Shown here in pieces: positions 1 through 34,186 of a DNA stretch of 64,000 nucleotides. The stretch is from Escherichia phage JY01. Where the stretch lies: sequence record OR995200.1; one strand, 5' to 3'. Each line of letters starts with the position of its first letter. The stretch's first letter is position 1. The notes beneath the pieces are model-generated. The model had not been told where the DNA came from. It searched no databases and was given only the letters and a program-made list of their open reading frames with translations. Position numbers and translations under genes: made by a program.

Positions 1-265
1 TCAAAGGACCGCGAACGAAATCAATTTTACAATCTGATCCATTCACAAACATCATATCAGCATTTACATCATGACACAATGCTTTTGCTACAGTTGTTTT
101 ACCTGTTCCTGGAGAAGGAGAATGAAGAATAATATGTGGAATCTTACCTTTACTTGTAATAGATTTAAAGGTTTCTTTATCAAAGGCGGGAAGAATACAT
201 TCATCGATAGTAGATGGACGATATTTCTGTTCAAGAATGTGTTCTTTTTCATTTACGGTAATCAT
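1..265 (-). CDS. 44: Clamp-loader large subunit gp44, N-terminal part (continues past window start)
   Basis: Minus-strand translation from ATG at 265 reads MITVNEKEHILEQKY, recognised as T4 gp44 N-terminus; sits directly downstream of gene 45; SD GAGGAAA upstream. Confidence 0.8.
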   Translation of the reverse strand, partial: MITVNEKEHILEQKYRPSTIDECILPAFDKETFKSITSKGKIPHIILHSPSPGTGKTTVAKALCHDVNADMMFVNGSDCKIDFVRGPL

Positions 266-299
266 AATTTCCTCATTCAAGTTTTAGTGTAAATTATAA

Positions 300-313
300 A
301 GGGCCGAAGCCCT
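300..313 (-). other. UUCG-tetraloop hairpin between genes 45 and 44
   Basis: Minus strand AGGGC-UUCG-GCCCU directly after the gene 45 stop, followed by UUUAUAAUUU and the gene 44 SD. Confidence 0.6.
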
Positions 314-316
314 CTA

Positions 317-1003
317 TTAAAAATCGTGGGTAGAATCAGCTTCAAGAGCTACTACATAATTCGCGTGTTCACCTTCAAATTTAGCAGCACCTTGTTTACC
401 TTTTGCCCAGAGCAGAAGTTTATAATTTCCTGGTTGCATTTTCATATTTGCCATATTGATAATGAAATTAAATGTATTTTCACCATCATAATCACCAAGA
501 GTCAAAGAATATTTAACACGGGTCAGAGCAGAATCTTCTACTTTATTAAAACCGTTAATTACGATTTTACCTTCTTTTACCGTGATAGCAATTGTATCAA
601 TCTGCAGACCACGAGATACACGCAACAGCTGTTGAAGGTCTTCAGCTTTAATTTCAGTAACAACAGATGCTACTGGGAATGGAATTGGTTTATTAGGAGC
701 AACTACTGTACTCGGATCGGCTGCTGGCCAAAAAATTGTTGAACGGGCATCAGCAATTTTAATATTTCCATCTTCTGACTGGGAAATTTCTGCATCATCA
801 TTAACTAAAGACAGAATACCGAGAAAACCATTCAAATCGTAAATTGCTACATCAAAATCAATAGTGTCAGAAATATTTGCTTCCGCATAAGTTGTACCAT
901 TAACTGCACGAGTCATAATAAATTGACCGGATTTAAGCATAATACCAGAGTTAATAGTAGCGAAATTTTTAAGCAGAGCAGTAGTATCTTTAGACAGTTT
1001 CAT
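317..1003 (-). CDS. 45: Sliding clamp (DNA polymerase processivity factor) gp45
   Basis: 228-aa ORF, sequence recognised as T4 gp45 (MKLSKDTTALLKNF...). Confidence 0.95.
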   Translation of the reverse strand: MKLSKDTTALLKNFATINSGIMLKSGQFIMTRAVNGTTYAEANISDTIDFDVAIYDLNGFLGILSLVNDDAEISQSEDGNIKIADARSTIFWPAADPSTVVAPNKPIPFPVASVVTEIKAEDLQQLLRVSRGLQIDTIAITVKEGKIVINGFNKVEDSALTRVKYSLTLGDYDGENTFNFIINMANMKMQPGNYKLLLWAKGKQGAAKFEGEHANYVVALEADSTHDF

Positions 1004-1701: not shown

Positions 1702-3384
1702 TTAAACCATTACAGTAAATCGACCAACTTTCTTCATTTGAAGATGCTGACCGTATGCTTGCGGGTCATGGTCTCTATGCGAAATAACAAAAACATTAGT
1801 ATTTTTTAAACTATCTAAAATAGTTGAAATAGCTTTTACACCTTCAACGTCGGTCGCTGAATCAAAAACTTCATCAAGAATTAGTGTGTTTATTTTAACG
1901 CCTGAAACTTTTTCAGCAATATCACGCCAAGTAAATAAAAGAGCAATATCAATTCGCGCTTTTTCACCTTGACTGAATGAAGCATAACTAAAATCTTCAC
2001 GACCACGTGATTTAATTGTCTCATTAAATTCTTCATCTAATGTAAACACATAATCCGCTTCCATTATTTTAAGATAATGGTTAATCTGCTTATTAAATAA
2101 TGGAATGTACTTTTTAATAATAGCACCTTTAATACCAGAATCTTTGAGCATATCAGTCAAAATTCCTCGGTGGTATTTTTCCATTACTAAATTAGTTTTT
2201 GTCTTAACAATTTTATCAAGTTCTTCTTGAAGCAGTGCTATTTCATCAGCATGGTCAATAAACTCAGAAGATGCTTTTTCTATAGCCGCTTTAACCTTTT
2301 TAGCTTTATCTACTGCTGCGATCAGAGATTGCTTTTTATTGCGAATATCATTTGCCAACGACTGCTGGGTTTTAATATTATCTCGGTATTCATCAACAAG
2401 AACTTTTAAATTATCACGATGTGTTGAAAGCTGTTCAAACGAATGCGTACATTCAGAAACTTTATCTTTAATTTTAGAAACAACTTTATCACCTGAACTT
2501 AATTGTGACAAGCAGGTTGGGCATAATCCACCTTCGTGATACATATTAATGACTTTATTATACGAGTCAATTTTTGATTTAATTAAAACTGCTTCTTGAC
2601 CGATTTTATTAAATGCATCAGTCGGGTCTTCATCTAAAACAATATTAACTAATCTTTCATTAGCTTCTTCTATTTCCGATTTTAGCGTTCTAGCTTCTTT
2701 TGCCAAATCATCATACATATTTTGAAGACGAGTAAGGTTGTCACCCGTTAATTTTTTCTGGCGTTCAACGTTATCATTATATATTTTAATTTGTTGGATA
2801 ATACTATCTTTTTTAACATCAAGCACTTGGTTTTGTGAATTTAATTCACGTATTAGTGCTTTATTAAGCTTATCCATTTCAGCTAATGTTCCTACCTCAA
2901 GCAGGTCTTCCACAAGCTTTCTTCGCGCAGGGGTCGACAAACCCATGAAAGGGGTATACCCTGCTGTACCAAGGACAACAATCTGCTTGAAACTGGCATA
3001 TGACATTCCGATAAGCTGTTCAAATTCTGCTTGGAAATCTTTACTGCTGGCAGATTCATTAAGACGTGTACCGTTAACGGTGATTTCGAAAACGTTTGGT
3101 TTTTGTCCTCTTTTGATATAGTACTTTTTCTCATCATATTCCATCCACAGTTCAACTAAAAGTTCTTTCTTATTTGTGCTGTTTATTAATTGACCTTTCT
3201 TTACATCACGAAATGGCTTGCCAAAAAGCCCAAATGTGATGGCTTCTAACATAGTAGACTTACCACCGCCATTTCGTCCAGTAATAAGAGTTTTTTGAAC
3301 CTTATCTAATTGAATGCCAATAGGATTTCCACCTACTGACATTATATTTTGATACCTAACTCGGTTTAGTTTAAAATTCTTCAC
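1702..3384 (-). CDS. 46: Recombination endonuclease subunit gp46 (Rad50/SbcC-like ATPase)
   Basis: 560-aa ORF with N-terminal Walker A GRNGGGKST, long coiled-coil middle, C-terminal signature/Walker B region (LILDEVFD). Confidence 0.92.
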   Translation of the reverse strand: MKNFKLNRVRYQNIMSVGGNPIGIQLDKVQKTLITGRNGGGKSTMLEAITFGLFGKPFRDVKKGQLINSTNKKELLVELWMEYDEKKYYIKRGQKPNVFEITVNGTRLNESASSKDFQAEFEQLIGMSYASFKQIVVLGTAGYTPFMGLSTPARRKLVEDLLEVGTLAEMDKLNKALIRELNSQNQVLDVKKDSIIQQIKIYNDNVERQKKLTGDNLTRLQNMYDDLAKEARTLKSEIEEANERLVNIVLDEDPTDAFNKIGQEAVLIKSKIDSYNKVINMYHEGGLCPTCLSQLSSGDKVVSKIKDKVSECTHSFEQLSTHRDNLKVLVDEYRDNIKTQQSLANDIRNKKQSLIAAVDKAKKVKAAIEKASSEFIDHADEIALLQEELDKIVKTKTNLVMEKYHRGILTDMLKDSGIKGAIIKKYIPLFNKQINHYLKIMEADYVFTLDEEFNETIKSRGREDFSYASFSQGEKARIDIALLFTWRDIAEKVSGVKINTLILDEVFDSATDVEGVKAISTILDSLKNTNVFVISHRDHDPQAYGQHLQMKKVGRFTVMV

Positions 3385-3596
3385 AAAAGATTCCTTTTAA
3401 TGTATCTTTTAGACCATTCTATCATATCATCATAATCTAAAAAGTATTCATCAAATTCAGCCATGCAAACAACACCTTGTGCTACTTTTGATGTGATATA
3501 AATTATTCCAACATATCTAGAATCTTCTTCGGTATAATCAATATTTGCTATGAATTCATCATTAATGTCAAATGTCGAAAACTTCACAGTATGCAT
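3381..3596 (-). CDS. Hypothetical protein (46.1 position)
   Basis: Track ORF 3381..3644 trimmed to internal Met after the end of the upstream ORF; stop overlaps gp46 start. Confidence 0.45.
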   Translation of the reverse strand: MHTVKFSTFDINDEFIANIDYTEEDSRYVGIIYITSKVAQGVVCMAEFDEYFLDYDDMIEWSKRYIKRNLL

Positions 3597-3831
3597 CCTT
3601 AATACAAGATACAGCCATATCTTGTAATGATTTAGGTGTATCATTATCTAAAATGTTGAAGTTAAAAGATACGGCCCAATCAGTGCATACCGTAACCTTT
3701 TTAATACAATTATCTTCAACCTCTAACGGTTCAAACCAATATTCAATAATTTCTTTATGCCCAATATCATCTTTTACTTCGCATTCAAAATGCTGACTCA
3801 TCATAACATTTTTAAATTCATCAAAAGTCAT
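3568..3831 (-). CDS. Hypothetical protein (46.2 position)
   Basis: 87-aa ORF; start overlaps gp47 stop by 4 nt, suggesting translational coupling. Confidence 0.5.
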   Translation of the reverse strand: MTFDEFKNVMMSQHFECEVKDDIGHKEIIEYWFEPLEVEDNCIKKVTVCTDWAVSFNFNILDNDTPKSLQDMAVSCIKDAYCEVFDI

Positions 3832-4847
3832 TGTGTTGCCTCTACATATAACTGATTTGCATATTGAATAAGTGCTTCGCGATCAGAATCAGTGATGTCT
3901 GGAATTGCATTAATGTATTCTTCCATCAATGTCTGAAGAGATTGAACTTCAACTTCTTCACTATCATCTGACTCAACAGAGTTATCAATCTTTGACACAA
4001 CTCGTAATGAATGCACAACTTTTTCTAGTTCAGATTCGAACTTCGTTAAATTTTTGTCTACTTCAGTTACTATAACACGCACTGATAGATTTGTAAAATC
4101 TTTATAGTCAATTTTTCCTTTAAATGGATAATGAATTCTACGATGCCAGGTAGTATTGTTTGGAATAAATTCCATTCGTTCTGTTTCTGTATCAAACATC
4201 CAGAACCCACGAGGGTCATTCTCGTCACCTGCAGTTAGTGTCCATGGTGTCCCAATATATCTAACGTTAGCAGCCTCAGAGATAGTATGGAAGTGACCAG
4301 ACCACACTTCTTTATAAGTCTTAAGGAAATCAGGTTCAAGACCATGAGATTTCATTCCTTTATAAAAATAAAATCCATTCAGTTCCCAGTGACCAACACA
4401 AAAAGAAGCAGATGAAGTTTTGATGTGTTCAAGAATTTCACCAGTATTTTCTTCACACATCCAAGGAATCAAATCAATCAAACACCCGTCAAAATCTACT
4501 GTAGTAGGCTTATCATATACTTTAACATTAGGATATTTAGCCAAAAGCTCAGTAGAAGCATTTGGATGCATTACATTTTTGTAGTGAAGATCGTGATTTC
4601 CTACAATAGTATGTAGGGTAATACCAGCATCATCAAGCATTTGAACTATTTCACGAGCAAACTCCATAGTTTTATGCGTGATCGCTTTTCGCACATCAAA
4701 AATATCACCGTATTGAATCCATACCGTAATTCCATTTTTCTTAGAATATTCTATCGCTTGCTTAATTCCATCAATTTGAATACCGCGAATCCACTCATCA
4801 TCAGCTTTAACGCCTAAATGCCAATCACCTAAATTTAAAATTTTCAT
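3828..4847 (-). CDS. 47: Recombination endonuclease subunit gp47 (Mre11/SbcD-like phosphoesterase)
   Basis: 339-aa ORF with calcineurin-like phosphoesterase motifs (GDWH..., GDIFD, GNHD, GHFH). Confidence 0.92.
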   Translation of the reverse strand: MKILNLGDWHLGVKADDEWIRGIQIDGIKQAIEYSKKNGITVWIQYGDIFDVRKAITHKTMEFAREIVQMLDDAGITLHTIVGNHDLHYKNVMHPNASTELLAKYPNVKVYDKPTTVDFDGCLIDLIPWMCEENTGEILEHIKTSSASFCVGHWELNGFYFYKGMKSHGLEPDFLKTYKEVWSGHFHTISEAANVRYIGTPWTLTAGDENDPRGFWMFDTETERMEFIPNNTTWHRRIHYPFKGKIDYKDFTNLSVRVIVTEVDKNLTKFESELEKVVHSLRVVSKIDNSVESDDSEEVEVQSLQTLMEEYINAIPDITDSDREALIQYANQLYVEATQ

Positions 4848-5024: not shown

Positions 5025-6226
5025 TATTTTGTAATAATGTCAAACTGTTCTTTAAAACAGAAGCTTGAATCTTGATGCTGATACAAAAATTCATAAGCTT
5101 TTTCACGTTCGCGGTCATAAAGAGCTCGGTCAGATGACAGTTCTTTAATACGTTCAAATGTTGATTCCATATCATTTTCATCAAACCAAATGATACCGCT
5201 ATCATGCGAGGTCAAAGGAGTATTATCAACACGGAATTTTAAATTTTCGCCAGTAGATTTCCAAAATACCGGAATTGTTCCACATGCACCAAGCTCGAGA
5301 TGAGTATATTCTAAAGAACGTTGTAGATATTTTTTATCCAACTTACTCAACTGATAACCAAAACCGGATTTACTCATACGTTCAAGCATTTCGCTATTTA
5401 CATAACGGTCAAGAATTTGCGTTGGCAAATTAGGAGCAATTTTAATTTGGTCTACTTGATGAAGACGATAATACTCGTATGGAATTCCTTTTTCTTTAAT
5501 AGGAATGAACGCTGGAGAACGTTCCAGACCTTCCATAATAGTACTTAGTCCTGCAGGTTTAAGATGTTTTTCATGAAAATCAAACATCTGATAAAAACCT
5601 TTCCATGTAGTCGTACGACCAATCCAACGGTTAACATTCATGTTAACTTCAGAAACATCTTTCCAGTAGGTTGACCGAACCTTCGCAATATCCATAGGAG
5701 GCTGAAAGTTATATACTGTCGGTGCTTCTTCAATATCATCAAACAGAGAAACAGTTTCTGGATACCATTCTTTCATCAGAACTTTATTAAAATCGCCATT
5801 ATCAGAATGGCTAAAAATAACATCAGCTCGACGAACAGTTTCTTCTAATCCCAAATTTCGACGCAAAGAAAGAGAAGAATGGTCATGCTGATAAACTACA
5901 ACACGAACAGAAGGTTTAATGTTATCAATAATTTTTTTATAGTTATTAATAGTGTCTTCTTCAACCGAAGTAGCAGGAACTGAATTGATAATTAGAATAT
6001 CACAATCATTTACCAGCTTAAGTGTTTTATCGTATTCTTTTGCCAATAAAACCGGAATTGAAAATGATTTATAATCATGCGCACAATTACGAGTAAATGA
6101 TTTATCTTTAGCATAAACCAAAGTTACTTCATGACCATTTTTAATAAACCAATCACGTTGCTCAAGAGAAAATTTAGTTACACCACAACCTTCAAGACCT
6201 CGAGCCATAAAAATACATACTTTCAT
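5024..6226 (-). CDS. a-gt: DNA alpha-glucosyltransferase
   Basis: 400-aa ORF, sequence recognised as T4 alpha-gt (…CIFMARGLEGCGVTKFSLEQRDWF…). Confidence 0.85.
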   Translation of the reverse strand: MKVCIFMARGLEGCGVTKFSLEQRDWFIKNGHEVTLVYAKDKSFTRNCAHDYKSFSIPVLLAKEYDKTLKLVNDCDILIINSVPATSVEEDTINNYKKIIDNIKPSVRVVVYQHDHSSLSLRRNLGLEETVRRADVIFSHSDNGDFNKVLMKEWYPETVSLFDDIEEAPTVYNFQPPMDIAKVRSTYWKDVSEVNMNVNRWIGRTTTWKGFYQMFDFHEKHLKPAGLSTIMEGLERSPAFIPIKEKGIPYEYYRLHQVDQIKIAPNLPTQILDRYVNSEMLERMSKSGFGYQLSKLDKKYLQRSLEYTHLELGACGTIPVFWKSTGENLKFRVDNTPLTSHDSGIIWFDENDMESTFERIKELSSDRALYDREREKAYEFLYQHQDSSFCFKEQFDIITK

Positions 6227-6276: not shown

Positions 6277-6296
6277 ATAGGAGCCGAAGCTCCTAT
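6277..6296 (-). other. UUCG-tetraloop hairpin upstream of the a-gt middle promoter
   Basis: Minus strand AUAGGAGC-UUCG-GCUCCUAU, 8-bp stem. Confidence 0.55.
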
Positions 6297-6469
6297 CCGC
6301 ATAATACACCGTATAGAGGCTCATTAGAGCTTCTAAATTTTATACGCTTATATGTTATAGTTCCTTCTGCTTTAGCTTTATCATGAGACTCTTTAAAGCG
6401 TCTCATCATTTCCTTTTTAGAGGAACGAATTTTATTATAATCTATTTCAGAAGTCTGGATGTTCATCTT

Positions 6470-6676
6470 TCATAACTGCCACCATTTTTTGACTTGATAA
6501 GAATCAACCCACACTTTCATATTAGGGTCTGCTCTTACAATAGGAGGATTAACTTCTTTAATTGAACTATCATGGTATTCTTTTTCAGAAATTTTCACAC
6601 AAAGATGACCATTCAAAGATTCAGTAAATCCTGCATTAATTTTAAGACGCTTGAATTTTACATGTGTAAGCATCAA
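6470..6676 (-). CDS. Hypothetical protein
   Basis: 68-aa ORF in the minus-strand early block. Confidence 0.4.
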   Translation of the reverse strand: MMLTHVKFKRLKINAGFTESLNGHLCVKISEKEYHDSSIKEVNPPIVRADPNMKVWVDSYQVKKWWQL

Positions 6677-6959
6677 TCATATCCTCAATCTGCGATCTAG
6701 TAGTCTTCCAAAGAATACTAATAAGTTCATCGTTATATGGCTGTTTTAGAATATCCCGACTTTTCTTGATAGCATATTCGTATTGAGCAAAATTATTATT
6801 TTCAGCTGCAATCTGAGCGTGCTTATAAAGACGATTCAGTTCGCGTTTGTTTTTAGACAATAACTTATTTGCTTTTCTTTCTGCTTCAAGACGGTTCTTT
6901 TCTTCAATAGAAGAAATAAGCTTTTCCACTTCATCATTAATTTCGGGTTTATCAGTCAT
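6642..6959 (-). CDS. Hypothetical protein, charged coiled-coil-like
   Basis: 105-aa ORF; stop adjacent to next ORF start. Confidence 0.5.
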   Translation of the reverse strand: MTDKPEINDEVEKLISSIEEKNRLEAERKANKLLSKNKRELNRLYKHAQIAAENNNFAQYEYAIKKSRDILKQPYNDELISILWKTTRSQIEDMIDAYTCKIQAS

Positions 6960-10568: not shown

Positions 10569-11039
10569 TTAATCATGTTTCCACACCCCATCGGTATTTG
10601 ACCAAAGTCGCTGATTGTCTGATCCTCGCCACAGCTTTTTGGTCGGAAGATTTTTCTCATACTTCCCATCAATAATAACATCAACATATTTAAGCATTTC
10701 TAGTTGTTTAATATCTTCAAACTTATATCCTGTCCACAACCAAATGCTTTTATTGGGATAAAGATTTTTTACTGTTTGAACGATGCAATGAATAACATCT
10801 CGGTTATCAGGATAGAGAGGGTCACCTCCGGTTATAGTCAATCCTTCTATATAATCATTATTCAAACATTCAATCAATTGTTCTAGTGTTTCACCAGTGA
10901 ATGGAATACCATTTCTAGCATTCCATGTTGATTTATTATAACACCCTTCGCATTTATGCAAACAACCTGTGACGAAAAGAACGACCCTGCATCCAGGGCC
11001 ATTCACAAAATCACAGGGATAAAATCTATCATAATTCAT
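10569..11039 (-). CDS. nrdG: Anaerobic ribonucleotide reductase activating protein (radical SAM) NrdG
   Basis: 156-aa ORF with CX3CX2C cluster (CLHKCEGC); 4-nt overlap with nrdD stop. Confidence 0.9.
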   Translation of the reverse strand: MNYDRFYPCDFVNGPGCRVVLFVTGCLHKCEGCYNKSTWNARNGIPFTGETLEQLIECLNNDYIEGLTITGGDPLYPDNRDVIHCIVQTVKNLYPNKSIWLWTGYKFEDIKQLEMLKYVDVIIDGKYEKNLPTKKLWRGSDNQRLWSNTDGVWKHD

Positions 11040-12853
11040 TGGTGTTTAACCCTATGCATGATTTCTTTATTTTTACCGAGATTAAATCCGCGTTCGTTCG
11101 GATTTCCCAAATAACCACATGTTCTTCTTATGGTATTCATCTTTTTAGGATCAGTTTCTCCGCAAATAGAACAAACAAATCCGTTTTCAGTAGGAGTCAT
11201 TTCATGGGTACTTCCACATGTAAAACATTTATCTACTGGCATATTAACACCAAAATAATCTAAATGTTGTGCGGCATAATCCCATACAGCCTCAAGACCT
11301 TTTAAGTTATTTTTCATATCAGGAAGTTCAACATAAGAAATGTGACCACCTGTCGCAATGAAATGATATGGCGCTTCACGAGAAATCTTTTCAAACGGAG
11401 TAACATTTTCTTCTACTGAAACGTGGAAACTGTTAGTGTACCAGCCTTTATCAGTAACATCCTTTACACTTCCATATTTTTCTGTATCAAGTTTACAGAA
11501 GCGATAGCAAAGGTTTTCAGCAGGAGTAGAATACAAGCTAAAAGCAAATCCAGTTCTTTCAGTCCACTGTTTAAGATGAGCATTCATTTTAGTTAAAATT
11601 TCTTGCCCAATATCACGACCGACAAGAATATTCAATTCGTGAATACCAATGTATCCTAAAGACACTGAACTTCTACCGTTTTTAAATAACTCAATTATGT
11701 CGTCATCAGGTTTAAGACGAACCCCGAATGCACCTTCTTGGTAAAGAATAGGAGCAACAGTCGCTTTAACTCCTTTTAAGGAACTAATTCTACACATCAA
11801 AGCTTCAAAACATAAATCCATTCGCTCATTGAACAATTCAGTAAATTTCTGTTCATTGAACTGTGTTCCAATATAAGAATCTAACGCAATACGAGGAAGA
11901 TTCAGTGTTACAACACCAAGATTATTACGTCCATCAAGAATTTCATTGCCAGTCGAATCTTTCCATACGCTCAAGAAACTACGGCATCCCATCGGGGAAA
12001 CAGGAACAGATGAACCAGTGATAGCTTTATTGTTCTTAGCTGAAATAATATCAGGATACATCCTTTTGCTTGCACACTCTAAAGCAAGCTGCTTAATATC
12101 ATAGTTCGGATCGTCTTTATAAAGATTAACACCTTCTTCAACAAACATAACAAGCTTAGGGAAAATAGGAGTTATCCCATCACGACCAAGACCTTTAATA
12201 CGATTTTTCAAAATTGCTTTCTGAATCATTCGTTCAGTCCAGTCAGTTCCTGTACCAAATGTAATTGTTACAAAAGGAGTCTGTCCGTTTGAACTAAAGA
12301 GAGTATTTACTTCATATTCATAAGCTTGGAATGCATCGTATACGTCTTTTTCTGTTTTAGATTGGGCATAATTCAGTGCATCGGCGATTTGCCATTTTTC
12401 TGCGTCTTCGATATGTTTTGCATAGGTGCGTTTAACATAAGGAGAAAGTACTTTATCTACATTAGCAAAAGTCGTTCCGCCATATTGATGGGAAGCAACT
12501 TGCGCAGTAATTTGTGCCATAATTGCAGTAGCAACACCGATTGATTTAGGAGTTTCAATCTGCGCATTACCAAGCTTAAATCCGTTCTCAAGCATTCCTT
12601 TTAAATCTACTAAACAACAATTAGTAAATGGAAGAGCAGGGGAATAATCAATATCATGAAAATGAATAATTCCGCTTTCATGCGCTTTCATAATAAAAGA
12701 CGGGACCATATTTTTGGCAATGTGTTTAGACACAATACCAGCCATAAGGTCCCGTTGAGTTGGAAAAACACGAGAATCTTTATTAGCATTCTCGTTTAAA
12801 AGGTCTTTATTAGTTTTATGAATCAATCCTTCAATTTCTTTTTCAATTGTCAT
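11036..12853 (-). CDS. nrdD: Anaerobic ribonucleoside-triphosphate reductase NrdD, uninterrupted
   Basis: 605-aa ORF with C-terminal glycyl-radical motif RRTCGYLG and Cys-rich zinc ribbon (CFTCGSTHE...CSICGE). Confidence 0.93.
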   Translation of the reverse strand: MTIEKEIEGLIHKTNKDLLNENANKDSRVFPTQRDLMAGIVSKHIAKNMVPSFIMKAHESGIIHFHDIDYSPALPFTNCCLVDLKGMLENGFKLGNAQIETPKSIGVATAIMAQITAQVASHQYGGTTFANVDKVLSPYVKRTYAKHIEDAEKWQIADALNYAQSKTEKDVYDAFQAYEYEVNTLFSSNGQTPFVTITFGTGTDWTERMIQKAILKNRIKGLGRDGITPIFPKLVMFVEEGVNLYKDDPNYDIKQLALECASKRMYPDIISAKNNKAITGSSVPVSPMGCRSFLSVWKDSTGNEILDGRNNLGVVTLNLPRIALDSYIGTQFNEQKFTELFNERMDLCFEALMCRISSLKGVKATVAPILYQEGAFGVRLKPDDDIIELFKNGRSSVSLGYIGIHELNILVGRDIGQEILTKMNAHLKQWTERTGFAFSLYSTPAENLCYRFCKLDTEKYGSVKDVTDKGWYTNSFHVSVEENVTPFEKISREAPYHFIATGGHISYVELPDMKNNLKGLEAVWDYAAQHLDYFGVNMPVDKCFTCGSTHEMTPTENGFVCSICGETDPKKMNTIRRTCGYLGNPNERGFNLGKNKEIMHRVKHQ

Positions 12854-29599: not shown

Positions 29600-30061
29600 T
29601 CATTGAGTTTTAATTACTGCTTTAGAAGCCTTTCCTGGTAAACGACGACTGTTGATAATTGCCATCCTGCATTGGAGTGACGGGTCTTTGAACTTCTCAT
29701 TAGGTTTACAAACTGTAAATCCAAGCCAAAGATTTCCATCTGTGATTTCTAAACGTCCAGGACGATATTCAACCCCATCAATAAAATCCTCGTCAATGTC
29801 AGGACGCGGAGGCATACTCAGGAATTCATTAACTTCTAAAACATGGTCTTTTATTTTGTGGAATAATTCAAAAACATATGTCTCATCAATCTCCCGTTGA
29901 ATTGCACGATCAAGAAGATGTTGAGAATATTTTAGATGAAACGATGAGACTCCTGCTGCTTTTGATGCCTCACGAATCTCATTGTTAATTTGACGAAACT
30001 CCGACTCAAAATGACGACGAAGCTTATTTCGACGGATAAAAACTTCTGTATTGATAGTCAT
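29600..30061 (-). CDS. regB: Endoribonuclease RegB
   Basis: 153-aa ORF recognised as T4 RegB (MTINTEVFIRRNKLRRHF…). Confidence 0.9.
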   Translation of the reverse strand: MTINTEVFIRRNKLRRHFESEFRQINNEIREASKAAGVSSFHLKYSQHLLDRAIQREIDETYVFELFHKIKDHVLEVNEFLSMPPRPDIDEDFIDGVEYRPGRLEITDGNLWLGFTVCKPNEKFKDPSLQCRMAIINSRRLPGKASKAVIKTQ

Positions 30062-30120: not shown

Positions 30121-30399
30121 TTATTCTTTAAATCTAATCAATTTATTCATAGACTTTGAAACTTCTGCACGAACCTCATGTAAGTTTTTAAGCTGTTCAA
30201 GACGCTGCTCATAGTAAGCAATTTCATCTTCTTCGAGACAGTCCTGTGAATCTTCTTTAAGATAACGTGCATAGTCCTGAAAAGCTTTACGGACTACTTC
30301 CTGGAAGTCATCAAGACTTTGAATTTTCTTAGGAGCGACAGATACACGACGAGGTGCAGTATAATACTCATAACCAAACCCTGCACTTAATTGAGCCAT
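30121..30399 (-). CDS. Hypothetical protein
   Basis: Track ORF trimmed to internal Met. Confidence 0.45.
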
Positions 30400-30665
30400 T
30401 AGTATTTTTCCTCTGGTTTGAACACTGCACGACAAGCCCACATACTGGCTTCTTTGAGTTTCGTTTTAGCAATAGTTAACTGATCGAGGCTTTCAGCATA
30501 ATTCTTCGCGAGTTCATAGTCTTCACAGCTATCAAATGCTTCCCAAAATTCATCGTATAAAGCATCAAAGATAAGTCCTAAACGAACTTCAGCGTCTTTG
30601 ATAGCATTCACTTTACCGATTTTCTCTTCAGTATGCGGCTTATAACCTTTAATGTCTTCAATCAT
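30399..30665 (-). CDS. Hypothetical protein
   Basis: Track ORF trimmed to internal Met. Confidence 0.45.
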
Positions 30666-30879
30666 ATTTGACTTCCTCACCAGTACATAAATCATATTCA
30701 ACTAAACGAATAGGTTCATGAATGCCATATCCCTGAACAGAAATTTCTGTAGTAGGATAAATTCCATCAATATCACCCATATTCCACGCTTCGTTAAATT
30801 GCTGTTCGCCTGAATTACTAAACCACTCGGCGAAAGCATTTAGCACATCTTTAGAACCTTCAATAATTATCTTTGCCAT
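30658..30879 (-). CDS. Hypothetical protein
   Basis: 73-aa ORF abutting the GrcA-like gene. Confidence 0.45.
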   Translation of the reverse strand: MAKIIIEGSKDVLNAFAEWFSNSGEQQFNEAWNMGDIDGIYPTTEISVQGYGIHEPIRLVEYDLCTGEEVKYD

Positions 30880-31241
30880 TACAAACTCTCGGTGAAGGTA
30901 CGAGCGATAACGTCGCGCTGCTGTTCCGGAGTCAGAGAGTTAAAGCGAACTGCATAACCGGATACACGGATGGTCAGCTGCGGATATTTTTCCGGATGCT
31001 TAACTGCATCTTCCAGAGTTTCACGACGCAGAACGTTAACGTTCAGGTGTTGACCACCTTCAATTTTAACTGTAGGCTGTGGCTCAATTTCAATTTCACG
31101 GGCATGCAAACCGTAGAAAATTTCTGGGTCTACAAAAGAGTCCTCTTTAAAGGTTTTAGAGACAATAATTCGTGCTTGAATACCATCTTCAAAATAAATA
31201 GTGCCTTTATGTGTGCCTTCAAGAATTTGATATGCTTTCAT
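30879..31241 (-). CDS. Autonomous glycyl-radical cofactor (GrcA/YfiD-like)
   Basis: C-terminal about 70 aa recognised as near-identical to E. coli GrcA, including the glycyl-radical motif RVSGYAV. Confidence 0.8.
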
Positions 31242-31248
31242 ATAAACC

Positions 31249-31578
31249 TCAATTAGAAAATAAATTTATCCAAGATTGTTCTTTAATTAAAAATGGCTCA
31301 GCATCATATGCCATTAAACTTTGGGTAATTAATCCTTTAAAAGGTCCATCAATAAATTCCATGGTAAAATATGGAATTTTATTCATTAGCCGTGCATTAG
31401 GAGCAGTACACAAAACTCTGCATCCTTTGAATACACCTTTTTGTAATTTGTATTGCTTGGGATAAAATTCGCTCAAAATGTTATTATTTGCCAAAATTTC
31501 AAAATGATTCACCAATTTATTTTTAATAGTTTTTGGCGAAAAATAAAGATATTCGAAAAGCTGTGTGTCTGTCATCAT
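31249..31578 (-). CDS. Hypothetical protein
   Basis: 109-aa ORF. Confidence 0.45.
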
Positions 31579-32165
31579 TGCATTCCAATCACAAAAAATT
31601 GAGGACGAACTGTTTCACCTGTTTCAGCATTATAGCTTCGACAACAGTGTTGTACCGTTTTAATATGGATATTGTAAATCTTATCCATATCAGGAGCTTT
31701 AATAGGTTCGTCAATTATGTACAAGATACGAGAAAGCGATAACCCACGGAATTTATGACCTTCATTACCGATAAAACTACGGACAGAATCAGTAAATAAA
31801 CGAAAACGTATATCATCATTAGAATAACGCGAAAATTCCTTTTTAATGTTATTTGCAGAAATTTTAGCGTAAGCTGAAGTATTAGAAAGAACAATAACTG
31901 TTCCGCCATCATACAGCCAATTAGCAGCAAAGTTAGTCACAGCAATTGATTTACCGGATTGACGTCCACCATCTATACGAAGTGTGCAGTACTGTTTGAG
32001 CACATCTTCCATTGGTGGAAGATAATCATTCTTACAAATTTCTTCTACTCTAGCATCAGAATGGTGTGTAAAAGCATTCATCAGGGATAGATAAGGACCA
32101 GTTAAAAATGTTCTCATTTTATTCTCTCTAAGTTTGGGCCATTCCGTGGCGCATGAATTGTCCAT
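31575..32165 (-). CDS. Hypothetical P-loop protein
   Basis: 196-aa ORF with Walker-A-like GGRQSGKS. Confidence 0.5.
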   Translation of the reverse strand: MDNSCATEWPKLRENKMRTFLTGPYLSLMNAFTHHSDARVEEICKNDYLPPMEDVLKQYCTLRIDGGRQSGKSIAVTNFAANWLYDGGTVIVLSNTSAYAKISANNIKKEFSRYSNDDIRFRLFTDSVRSFIGNEGHKFRGLSLSRILYIIDEPIKAPDMDKIYNIHIKTVQHCCRSYNAETGETVRPQFFVIGMQ

Positions 32166-32258
32166 TTCTGTATTTACCCATTACCGCACTTGGGCTCGAC
32201 CTTATCACAGGTTGGCGGGAATCCCTCACAGAATCATGAGGTCCAGGTTGTTCCCATA

Positions 32259-32732
32259 TTATTTGAACGATTTAACGTACTGAATAGAACCCTTACTATT
32301 CACAAAGGCAATTTTACCATTTTTATTATACATGGTAGCAGTACGCTGATAACCATAGGTTTGTTTACCAGATTGATAACCAACTAATGCAAAATTATCT
32401 TCACCCATTTTATTCTGTTTAGCGCGAATGCGTTCATGACCATGTGCCATAAGAACCTTAGCATCACCAGTTGCAATGGATCGACGAGTTTTTTCATCTT
32501 CAACTGCATTAACAAAGTCGTCAAATGAATCAAATTTAGCATGAGATTTATTATACAATTTTCCATCTACTGCATAATTATATCCCTGTACATCCATCTC
32601 AACTTCTGTACCATCATCCAATACAGCAGTAATTTTTTGACCTTTTTTAAATTTCAAAAGATCAGTAAAAGATTCAGCAATAATTTGAGAATTAATAGCT
32701 GCTTCAGTGATAAATTCTTGATATGTTTTCAT
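32259..32732 (-). CDS. Internal-protein-like head protein with capsid-targeting leader
   Basis: 157-aa ORF starting MKTYQEFITEA, the T4 internal-protein leader type; late promoter TATAAATA about 35 nt upstream. Confidence 0.6.
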   Translation of the reverse strand: MKTYQEFITEAAINSQIIAESFTDLLKFKKGQKITAVLDDGTEVEMDVQGYNYAVDGKLYNKSHAKFDSFDDFVNAVEDEKTRRSIATGDAKVLMAHGHERIRAKQNKMGEDNFALVGYQSGKQTYGYQRTATMYNKNGKIAFVNSKGSIQYVKSFK

Positions 32733-32741
32733 GTGTTTCCT

Positions 32742-33158
32742 TTAAATGTAAATATTTTTACCGTAGTATTTATACCAGTGTGGCTTCATTAAAATTTTTT
32801 CATCGAGTCGTTGTTGACTCAATTTAATAGCTGATTTGCATGGATTATAATCATTTTTCCATTCTGCTGGAATATCGCTGATGTCAGGAACTTCAGTATC
32901 TTTTATATTGAACCCACGTTTTAAGCATTCCGTTATAATGTCTGATTGACGCTTTCGCAAAAATTCTAACTTATCGTAAAAGAACGTAACATGACCAGAG
33001 CCTAAAATAAACTCGGAAGATATTTTAAAATCTTTAACCCGCTTACCATTTGCCACATGTTTACGAACTATACCAAAAACGCGTGGCAATTCACGGTATT
33101 CTGCGATTAAATGTTGATCAGCAAGTTCAGATACTAAAGTCAAATTAATACGAGTCAT
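32742..33158 (-). CDS. denV: Endonuclease V (pyrimidine-dimer DNA glycosylase) DenV
   Basis: 138-aa [20 protein letters not shown]…; recognised as T4 DenV but visibly diverged. Confidence 0.9.
32767..32774 (-). promoter_or_regulatory. Late promoter (gp55-type TATAAATA)
   Basis: TATAAATA on minus strand about 35 nt upstream of the internal-protein-like gene at 32732. Confidence 0.65.
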
Positions 33159-33182
33159 TTTATCCCTCCAAGTAACTGTGAA

Positions 33183-33213
33183 TATACTATCACAATTCTA
33201 GAAGAAAGTAAAC
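33183..33213 (-). promoter_or_regulatory. Early promoter for denV
   Basis: Minus strand: GTTTAC, 17 nt, tgtgATAGTATAT; SD GGAGGG before denV ATG. Confidence 0.55.
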
Positions 33214-33217
33214 AACT

Positions 33218-34186
<969 letters not shown>

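Follow-up and report, generated by a model that had tools for sequence, protein, structure and literature searches.

Does a small phage gene whose product resembles the E. coli protein GrcA serve the pyruvate formate-lyase (PFL) of the host or the phage's own glycyl-radical enzyme, and how did one half of this gene come to carry the DNA sequence of the host? The gene is located at 30879..31241, on the minus strand of a 64,000-nucleotide stretch of DNA from Escherichia phage JY01 (OR995200.1), which is referred to here as the window, and encodes 120 aa from an ATG start to a TAA stop. Judged from its sequence and its neighbors, the ORF is the vs.6 gene of the Tequatroviruses, the ortholog of T4 Y06I, and its product would be a stand-alone glycyl-radical domain of about 14 kDa, an autonomous glycyl-radical cofactor of the GrcA type. 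The equation of Y06I with vs.6 is itself made from annotation and map position. Hundreds of Tequatrovirus (T4-like) genomes match the window region at 97-99% identity, and the gene has 100% nucleotide identity with that of Escherichia phage teqskov. The protein shares 119 of its 120 residues (99% identity) with T4 Vs.6 (NP_049730), which is named GrcA in RefSeq; the sole change is at residue 73, an arginine in the window, as in E. coli, and a histidine in T4. Furthermore, the profile PHROG 1209 is matched end to end (residues 1-120 on profile positions 1-121, E=1.2e-62).

The position of the gene is conserved as well. The early block between denV and regB has the order denV...vs.8-vs.7-vs.6-vs.5-vs.4-vs.3-regB in both the window and T4, where the vs.6 gene, also of 120 aa, is placed between vs.7 and vs.5. 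The window neighbors are denV (32742..33158), a vs.8-like ORF, a vs.7-like ORF (31249..31578), vs.5 (30658..30879), vs.4/Acb2 (30399..30701) and regB (29600..30061). Two signals on the minus strand can be read from the sequence: a Shine-Dalgarno GAGG at 31247..31250, located 5 nt before the ATG and overlapping the TGA stop of vs.7, and a TAATG at 30877..30881, in which the stop of vs.6 overlaps the start of vs.5. The latter fits with translational coupling of genes within a polycistronic early unit. A scan of 30300..33300 returned 12 promoter-like sites against 12.2 expected, and terminator-like sites on the non-coding strand only.

Two other genes of this block can be mentioned. The vs.4 ortholog (30399..30701, minus strand), two genes downstream of vs.6, has the Acb2/Tad1 hairpin domain (Pfam PF24729, E=2.1e-19), typical of the family of sponges that bind cyclic nucleotides and counteract CBASS. 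A 157-aa ORF (32259..32732, minus strand) that separates denV from the vs.8-like ORF matches DUF7412 and PHROG 3155, 'internal virion protein', and is Ip4-like in the teqskov annotation; in T4 there is no gene in this place, and denV adjoins vs.8.

The earlier note described the ORF as a GrcA-like spare glycyl-radical protein, and this description is borne out by three matches. Residues 61-101 match the Pfam Gly_radical model with E=2.8e-18 (66.8 bits, cut-off 22.2), the best match among solved structures is E. coli GrcA (6owr, E=8.6e-42), and residues 61-120 are 100% identical to residues 68-127 of E. coli GrcA. The C-terminal near-identity that the note had announced is therefore real, and in fact complete, but it extends over 60 aa rather than about 70. 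The next structural match is to the last 63 residues (697-759) of PFL (1h16, E=5e-26, about 85% identity). Alignment to E. coli GrcA also confirmed that the RVSGYAV motif is conserved: the predicted radical-bearing glycine of Vs.6 is Gly95, whose GGT codon is at 30957..30959 on the minus strand and which aligns with G102 of E. coli GrcA, the number given to the radical glycine of that protein (PMC12338860), and with G734 of PFL.

A small stand-alone protein with a glycyl-radical domain and the RVSGYAV motif has the hallmarks of the GrcA/YfiD group (TIGR04365, IPR011140), and E. coli GrcA (YfiD, PDB 6owr) is likewise a stand-alone domain, which PflA activates and which serves as a spare part for PFL. 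Compared with it, Vs.6 is 7 aa shorter, has a phage-type N-terminal start and is encoded by a phage in an early polycistronic unit instead of by the host grcA locus. Its score with TIGR04365 (spare_glycyl) is 153.3 bits, below the curated equivalog cut-off of 170 because of the divergent N-terminus; the match covers only profile positions 25-126, and E. coli GrcA itself scores 233.9. Full-length glycyl-radical enzymes such as PFL and NrdD have a ten-stranded barrel and a catalytic cysteine loop besides the Gly loop; Vs.6 does not look like one of them, as its matches to PFL-type models are confined to their last 60-65 residues. With the C-terminal domain of PflB (1h16, 697-759), the segment lost upon O2 cleavage at G734, it has the motif and a fold element in common, but it lacks the catalytic barrel and the Cys418/Cys419 pair and so cannot be an enzyme alone. 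A single-sequence AlphaFold2 run on the 120-aa protein gave no usable model (mean pLDDT 34.5, pTM 0.26).

The function of such a protein was addressed experimentally with the T4 ortholog. According to the summary of Wagner et al. 2001 (BBRC 285:456) given by Andorfer et al. 2021 (PMC8683613), the PFL-activating enzyme places a glycyl radical on both YfiD and T4 Y06I, which form a complex in vitro with O2-cleaved PFL and restore its activity; these two are the sole spare-part proteins validated so far (PMC8683613). The work of Wagner et al. is also cited in a 2026 review on glycyl-radical enzymes (PMC13450708). In addition, vs.6 is one of just eleven T4 ORFs that Nolan et al. 2006 listed as having no known function and yet being conserved in five T4-like genomes; they also remarked on its Gly_radical match, and the gene is non-essential in T4 (PMC1524935). 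A phage phenotype of vs.6 in vivo was not found in the literature searched.

The window gene very probably has the same role as T4 Y06I, namely that of a spare part for PFL activated by host PflA, and is a chimera whose 3' half was replaced by the grcA of the current host. The proposal that the protein repairs or maintains host PFL agrees with the function published in vitro for the ortholog, which is 99% identical and differs by R73 versus H73. Since PFL rescue was already established in vitro for the T4 protein, the function is not a new inference: vs.6 is a known gene, biochemically characterized since 2001 and routinely annotated in RefSeq. From the work on the T4 protein, host PflA would install the radical on Gly95, and the activated Vs.6 would then dock on a PFL that has lost its C-terminal radical domain to cleavage by oxygen, restoring catalysis. 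A likely rationale is that T4 shuts off host gene expression, so that no new PflB or GrcA would be made, and a phage-made spare part could keep the production of acetyl-CoA/ATP and formate going during infection under microaerobic or fluctuating-oxygen conditions. With vs.6, T-even phages carry a repair part for a fermentation enzyme of their host, and such an auxiliary metabolic gene suits gut-like environments in which oxygen fluctuates.

The N-terminal half of Vs.6 is encoded by an AT-rich phage segment (codons 1-59/60, 31064..31241, minus strand). The earlier note considered this part phage-specific; this cannot be maintained in the sense of an unrelated phage domain, as the segment is a diverged homologue of the N-terminal region of GrcA. 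Residues 22-59 alone have 36% identity to GrcA 28-66 over 39 aa (BLASTP E=1e-5), and four residues (Q5, K29, D34 and R48) are invariant in an alignment of 12 phage and bacterial proteins. The first 21 residues of Vs.6 are replaced relative to host GrcA, and an N-terminal pattern, KAYQIL.G...GTIY.E, is common to the copies of Tevenvirinae, of Pseudotevenvirus and of the Erwinia jumbo phage, weaker in those of RB49, Aeromonas and T5-like phages, and absent from bacterial GrcA. In RB49 the protein has 138 aa (269..685 of sequence L092), with 18 extra residues within the N-terminal half. The length of this region thus varies across T4-like genera, and the C-terminal 60 aa are nearly invariant.

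In E. coli GrcA the N-terminal region is disordered, promotes installation of the radical and affects the efficiency of PFL-AE (PMC13450708). The kinetics of Vs.6 could therefore differ from those of GrcA, and one may ask if the phage protein is a decoy or modulator that competes with GrcA or PflB for PflA, or occupies PFL, and redirects the fermentation of the host. The strong divergence of the N-terminal half, the phage-type pattern and the tuning role of this region in E. coli would all suit such a function. However, the part of Vs.6 that contacts the active site of PFL is identical to the host spare part, and according to the cited summary the effect of the T4 protein on PFL was to reconstitute its activity, not to inhibit it (PMC8683613), so this explanation is quite unlikely.

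The other enzymes that could be connected with Vs.6 are those of anaerobic ribonucleotide reduction. The window contains, on the minus strand, nrdD (11036..12853), encoding a class III anaerobic ribonucleotide reductase (Pfam NRDD E=4e-171, plus Gly_radical; NCBIfam NF006732 908.7 bits), and nrdG (10569..11039), encoding the radical-SAM enzyme that activates NrdD (TIGR02491 198.6 bits, cut-off 126.1). Both genes are in the same window, as the earlier note stated, but they are not alongside vs.6: 18-20 kb and dozens of genes separate them from it. In the teqskov record, the nrdG ortholog is labeled 'pyruvate formate-lyase 1-activating enzyme' and a long run of genes in the nrdC region is labeled 'thioredoxin'; both labels look like annotation carry-over errors, the former because the nrdG ortholog clearly belongs to NrdG by the NCBIfam models.

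NrdD, too, is cleaved by oxygen at its radical glycine, and Vs.6 could accordingly be imagined as a spare part for the phage's own NrdD, activated by the phage NrdG that is encoded in the same window. The gene arrangement of Erwinia phage pEa_SNUABM_12, a 358-kb jumbo phage, points in this direction, as its grcA-like gene (5481..5843 of sequence L186) is flanked on the same strand by nrdD (2596..4419) and nrdG (6294..6767). This is the only lineage observed in which the three glycyl-radical genes are tightly linked, but despite this linkage its grcA-like copy retains a PFL-type sequence. In the window, vs.6 and nrdD/nrdG are far apart, and the T5-like copies are surrounded by tRNA genes, the 12 kb examined containing neither nrdD nor nrdG. 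The comparison of the proteins themselves led to the rejection of Vs.6 as an NrdD-type part: BLASTP of Vs.6 against the window NrdD gave no significant similarity (E=6.2), as opposed to the identity of its C-terminal 60 aa to GrcA and their resemblance to the C-terminus of PFL. Moreover, the activator of Y06I in the summarized publication is PFL-AE (PMC8683613). Service to NrdD as a spare part is therefore very unlikely.

The same observations bear on the 'full glycyl-radical toolkit' that the earlier note had proposed. A functional unit of Vs.6, NrdD and NrdG is not supported: besides the distance and the lack of similarity to NrdD, the only activase detected in the window belongs to the NrdG family and, at 51.3 bits, stays below the cut-off of the PflA model (231.75), and the published activator is the PFL activase of the host. 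The interpretation as a whole is partly supported, in its PFL role and not in its NrdD/NrdG toolkit. A metabolic link between Vs.6 and NrdD is more plausible. Class III ribonucleotide reductases use formate as the reductant, and a formate site was proposed in T4 NrdD (PMC4493059); the formate made by a rescued PFL might also serve the phage NrdD.

The second part of the question, the origin of the gene, arises from its DNA. On the minus strand, positions 30895..31063 form an exact run of 169 nt identical to nt 200-368 of E. coli grcA, which encodes the glycyl-radical domain (EGGQHLN...IART(F)). By blastn against 5,426 complete E. coli genomes, nt 179-363 of the gene match grcA at 96.8-97.3%, and the 5' half has no DNA match in these genomes. 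Over codons 60-115 there are 0 synonymous differences from E. coli grcA at 42.8 sites. The composition changes along the gene as well, with a GC content of 0.50 in the tract versus 0.35 both in the 5' part and over the entire window, and a GC3 of 0.46 in the 3' half versus 0.24 in the 5' half. The match ends within the ORF on both sides and has no extension into the flanks of grcA. Composition and identity together indicate that vs.6 is a chimera, made of an old, AT-rich phage 5' half and a 3' half derived from the grcA of a host.

The right-hand edge of the tract is variable. At 30882..30894 (minus strand) are the last codons before the stop, TTC ACC GAG AGT TTG, which start one base inside the exact run, and all five differences from E. 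coli grcA in 185 aligned nt are in the last 15 nt; the chance that 5 of 5 differences are located in one given 15-nt end is about 1.8e-6. The codons TTC, ACC and GAG are states also present in Karamvirus or Jiaodavirus phages. T4 vs.6 carries the corresponding E. coli-type 3' tract, and the host-like DNA of the window stops 9 nt earlier at the 3' end. The host-like sequence reaches further right in both T4 and OES_C-2 than in the window gene, hence the right-hand ends of the tract differ among Tequatroviruses. The OES_C-2 gene (229..585 of sequence L178) is host-like up to the stop codon, and it has an in-frame deletion of 6 nt in the linker before the host tract, which changes EIEIEPQP to EIETQP.

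An exact match of this length with host-like GC content might also be read as a functionless recent scrap of host DNA or an assembly artefact, but this exceedingly improbable reading is effectively refuted by the distribution of the gene, since the chimera is intact and in frame in about 640 independently sequenced phage genomes, many families of phages keep vs.6-type genes at a dN near zero, the flanks of grcA are never included in the match, and only 1 of about 25 inspected copies is frameshifted. The frameshifted copy, on a Jiaodavirus-like IMG/VR contig (401..763 of sequence L123), is either a pseudogene or a sequencing error.

The distribution is informative about the donors of the 3' half. 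Intact vs.6-type ORFs are present in >1,500 phage records, T5-like and jumbo phages included, and dN in the 3' tract is about 0 across phage genera, which speaks for selection on the protein. About 640 phage records have 95-99.5% identity to E. coli grcA, and this similarity always starts at grcA nt 199-200. Another 106 phage records are 95-99% identical to the grcA of K. pneumoniae, the sampled listing being headed by Klebsiella phages, and the E. coli phages sampled have 86-88% identity to that gene. Over a tract of 165 nt, the identities to the grcA of E. coli and K. pneumoniae, respectively, are 100% and 87.9% for the window, 99.4% and 87.3% for T4 (both Tequatrovirus), 96.4% and 85.5% for LF82-41 (Mosigvirus), 84.8% and 97.0% for Merci, and 89.1% and 95.2% for RCIP0102 (both Jiaodavirus). 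Tequatrovirus and Jiaodavirus share only 71% identity in their 5' halves (dS about 1.5), and the left junction is within one and the same 6-nt interval in both genera. As Jiaodavirus resembles K. pneumoniae grcA and Tequatrovirus resembles E. coli grcA, at least two independent host-to-phage replacements of one segment are required.

The direction of the transfer was deduced from the host genes. With respect to E. coli, the dS of the 5' and 3' parts of grcA is 0.60 and 0.43 in Citrobacter, 0.83 and 0.78 in Klebsiella, and 0.85 and 1.15 in Salmonella. The two parts diverge congruently, therefore the host gene was inherited vertically and the DNA moved from host to phage; the opposite direction is ruled out by this congruence together with the host-like GC and codon composition of the tract. 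The grcA DNA of K. pneumoniae and K. aerogenes came from chromosome pieces mis-filed as plasmids.

Tracking of the host is not supported as a general rule. Salmonella grcA has no phage match above 90%, and the copies of Karamvirus, Slopekvirus-like, Pseudotevenvirus, Krischvirus, Aeromonas, T5-like and jumbo phages have 69-85% identity to E. coli grcA and do not exceed 85% with any host grcA tested, which fits old, ameliorated acquisitions. Between Tequatrovirus and Mosigvirus, dS is 0.36-0.40 in the 5' half and 0.05-0.16 in the 3' tract (Fisher p 0.009-0.11, depending on the phage); this suggests, although not decisively, that these genera underwent separate, later or repeated replacements.

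These data make it probable, if well short of certain, that the 3' half of vs.6 is kept in DNA register with the current host by repeated overwriting with host grcA through homology-limited recombination. One replacement or series of replacements would have led from Escherichia to Tequatrovirus and Mosigvirus, an independent one from Klebsiella to Jiaodavirus, and probably further events took place within Tequatrovirus. The most likely partners are phage DNA and fragments of host DNA. A host fragment would pair with the phage gene across the sole region that is still similar, the non-homologous ends would be trimmed and the heteroduplex replicated. If pairing is limited in this way, the edges of the tract would be fixed where homology ends, and every replacement would ease the next.

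Gene conversion between host and phage has a possible precedent in the psbA gene of cyanophages, reportedly described by Zeidner in 2005 and Sullivan in 2006. As in vs.6, a metabolic gene of the host carried by a phage exchanges segments with the host copy, producing intragenic mosaics. In vs.6, however, only the 3' half is exchanged, the left junction is fixed, enterobacterial grcA genes act as donors, and the DNA is received by T-even phages, which contain hmC and degrade the DNA of their host. In the literature searched, with subscription journals mostly outside its scope, no description of the vs.6/grcA mosaic was found.

As a side result, the host-tracking mosaic is modest and well supported, and it is the less expected point of an otherwise ordinary gene. 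T-even phages are usually assumed to destroy the DNA of their host, not to sample it, and here one segment was replaced at least twice independently in virulent, host-DNA-degrading phages, each time matching their own host. The mosaic offers a simple marker for the rate at which phages recombine with host chromosomes and, if the overwriting is ongoing, vs.6 would serve as a natural reporter, easy to score, of recombination from host to phage in the T-even group. A further question posed by the mosaic is why the N-terminal half stays phage-specific while the radical domain tracks the host.

Some minor observations concern the records and the distant copies. Several PLSDB 'plasmids' of 0.3-5.4 Mb are really pieces of chromosomes, and in one of them, 'plasmid 2' of K. 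aerogenes NCTC10006, a surplus A in a homopolymer (GAAAAAATACC, at about 470-480 of sequence L185), probably a long-read sequencing error, truncates the grcA CDS. In T5-like phages (Demerecviridae), such as Salmonella phage gmork (5815..6183 of sequence L187), a grcA-like gene of 122 aa is located within a cluster of tRNA genes, and its 3' half has only about 74% DNA identity to the window gene.
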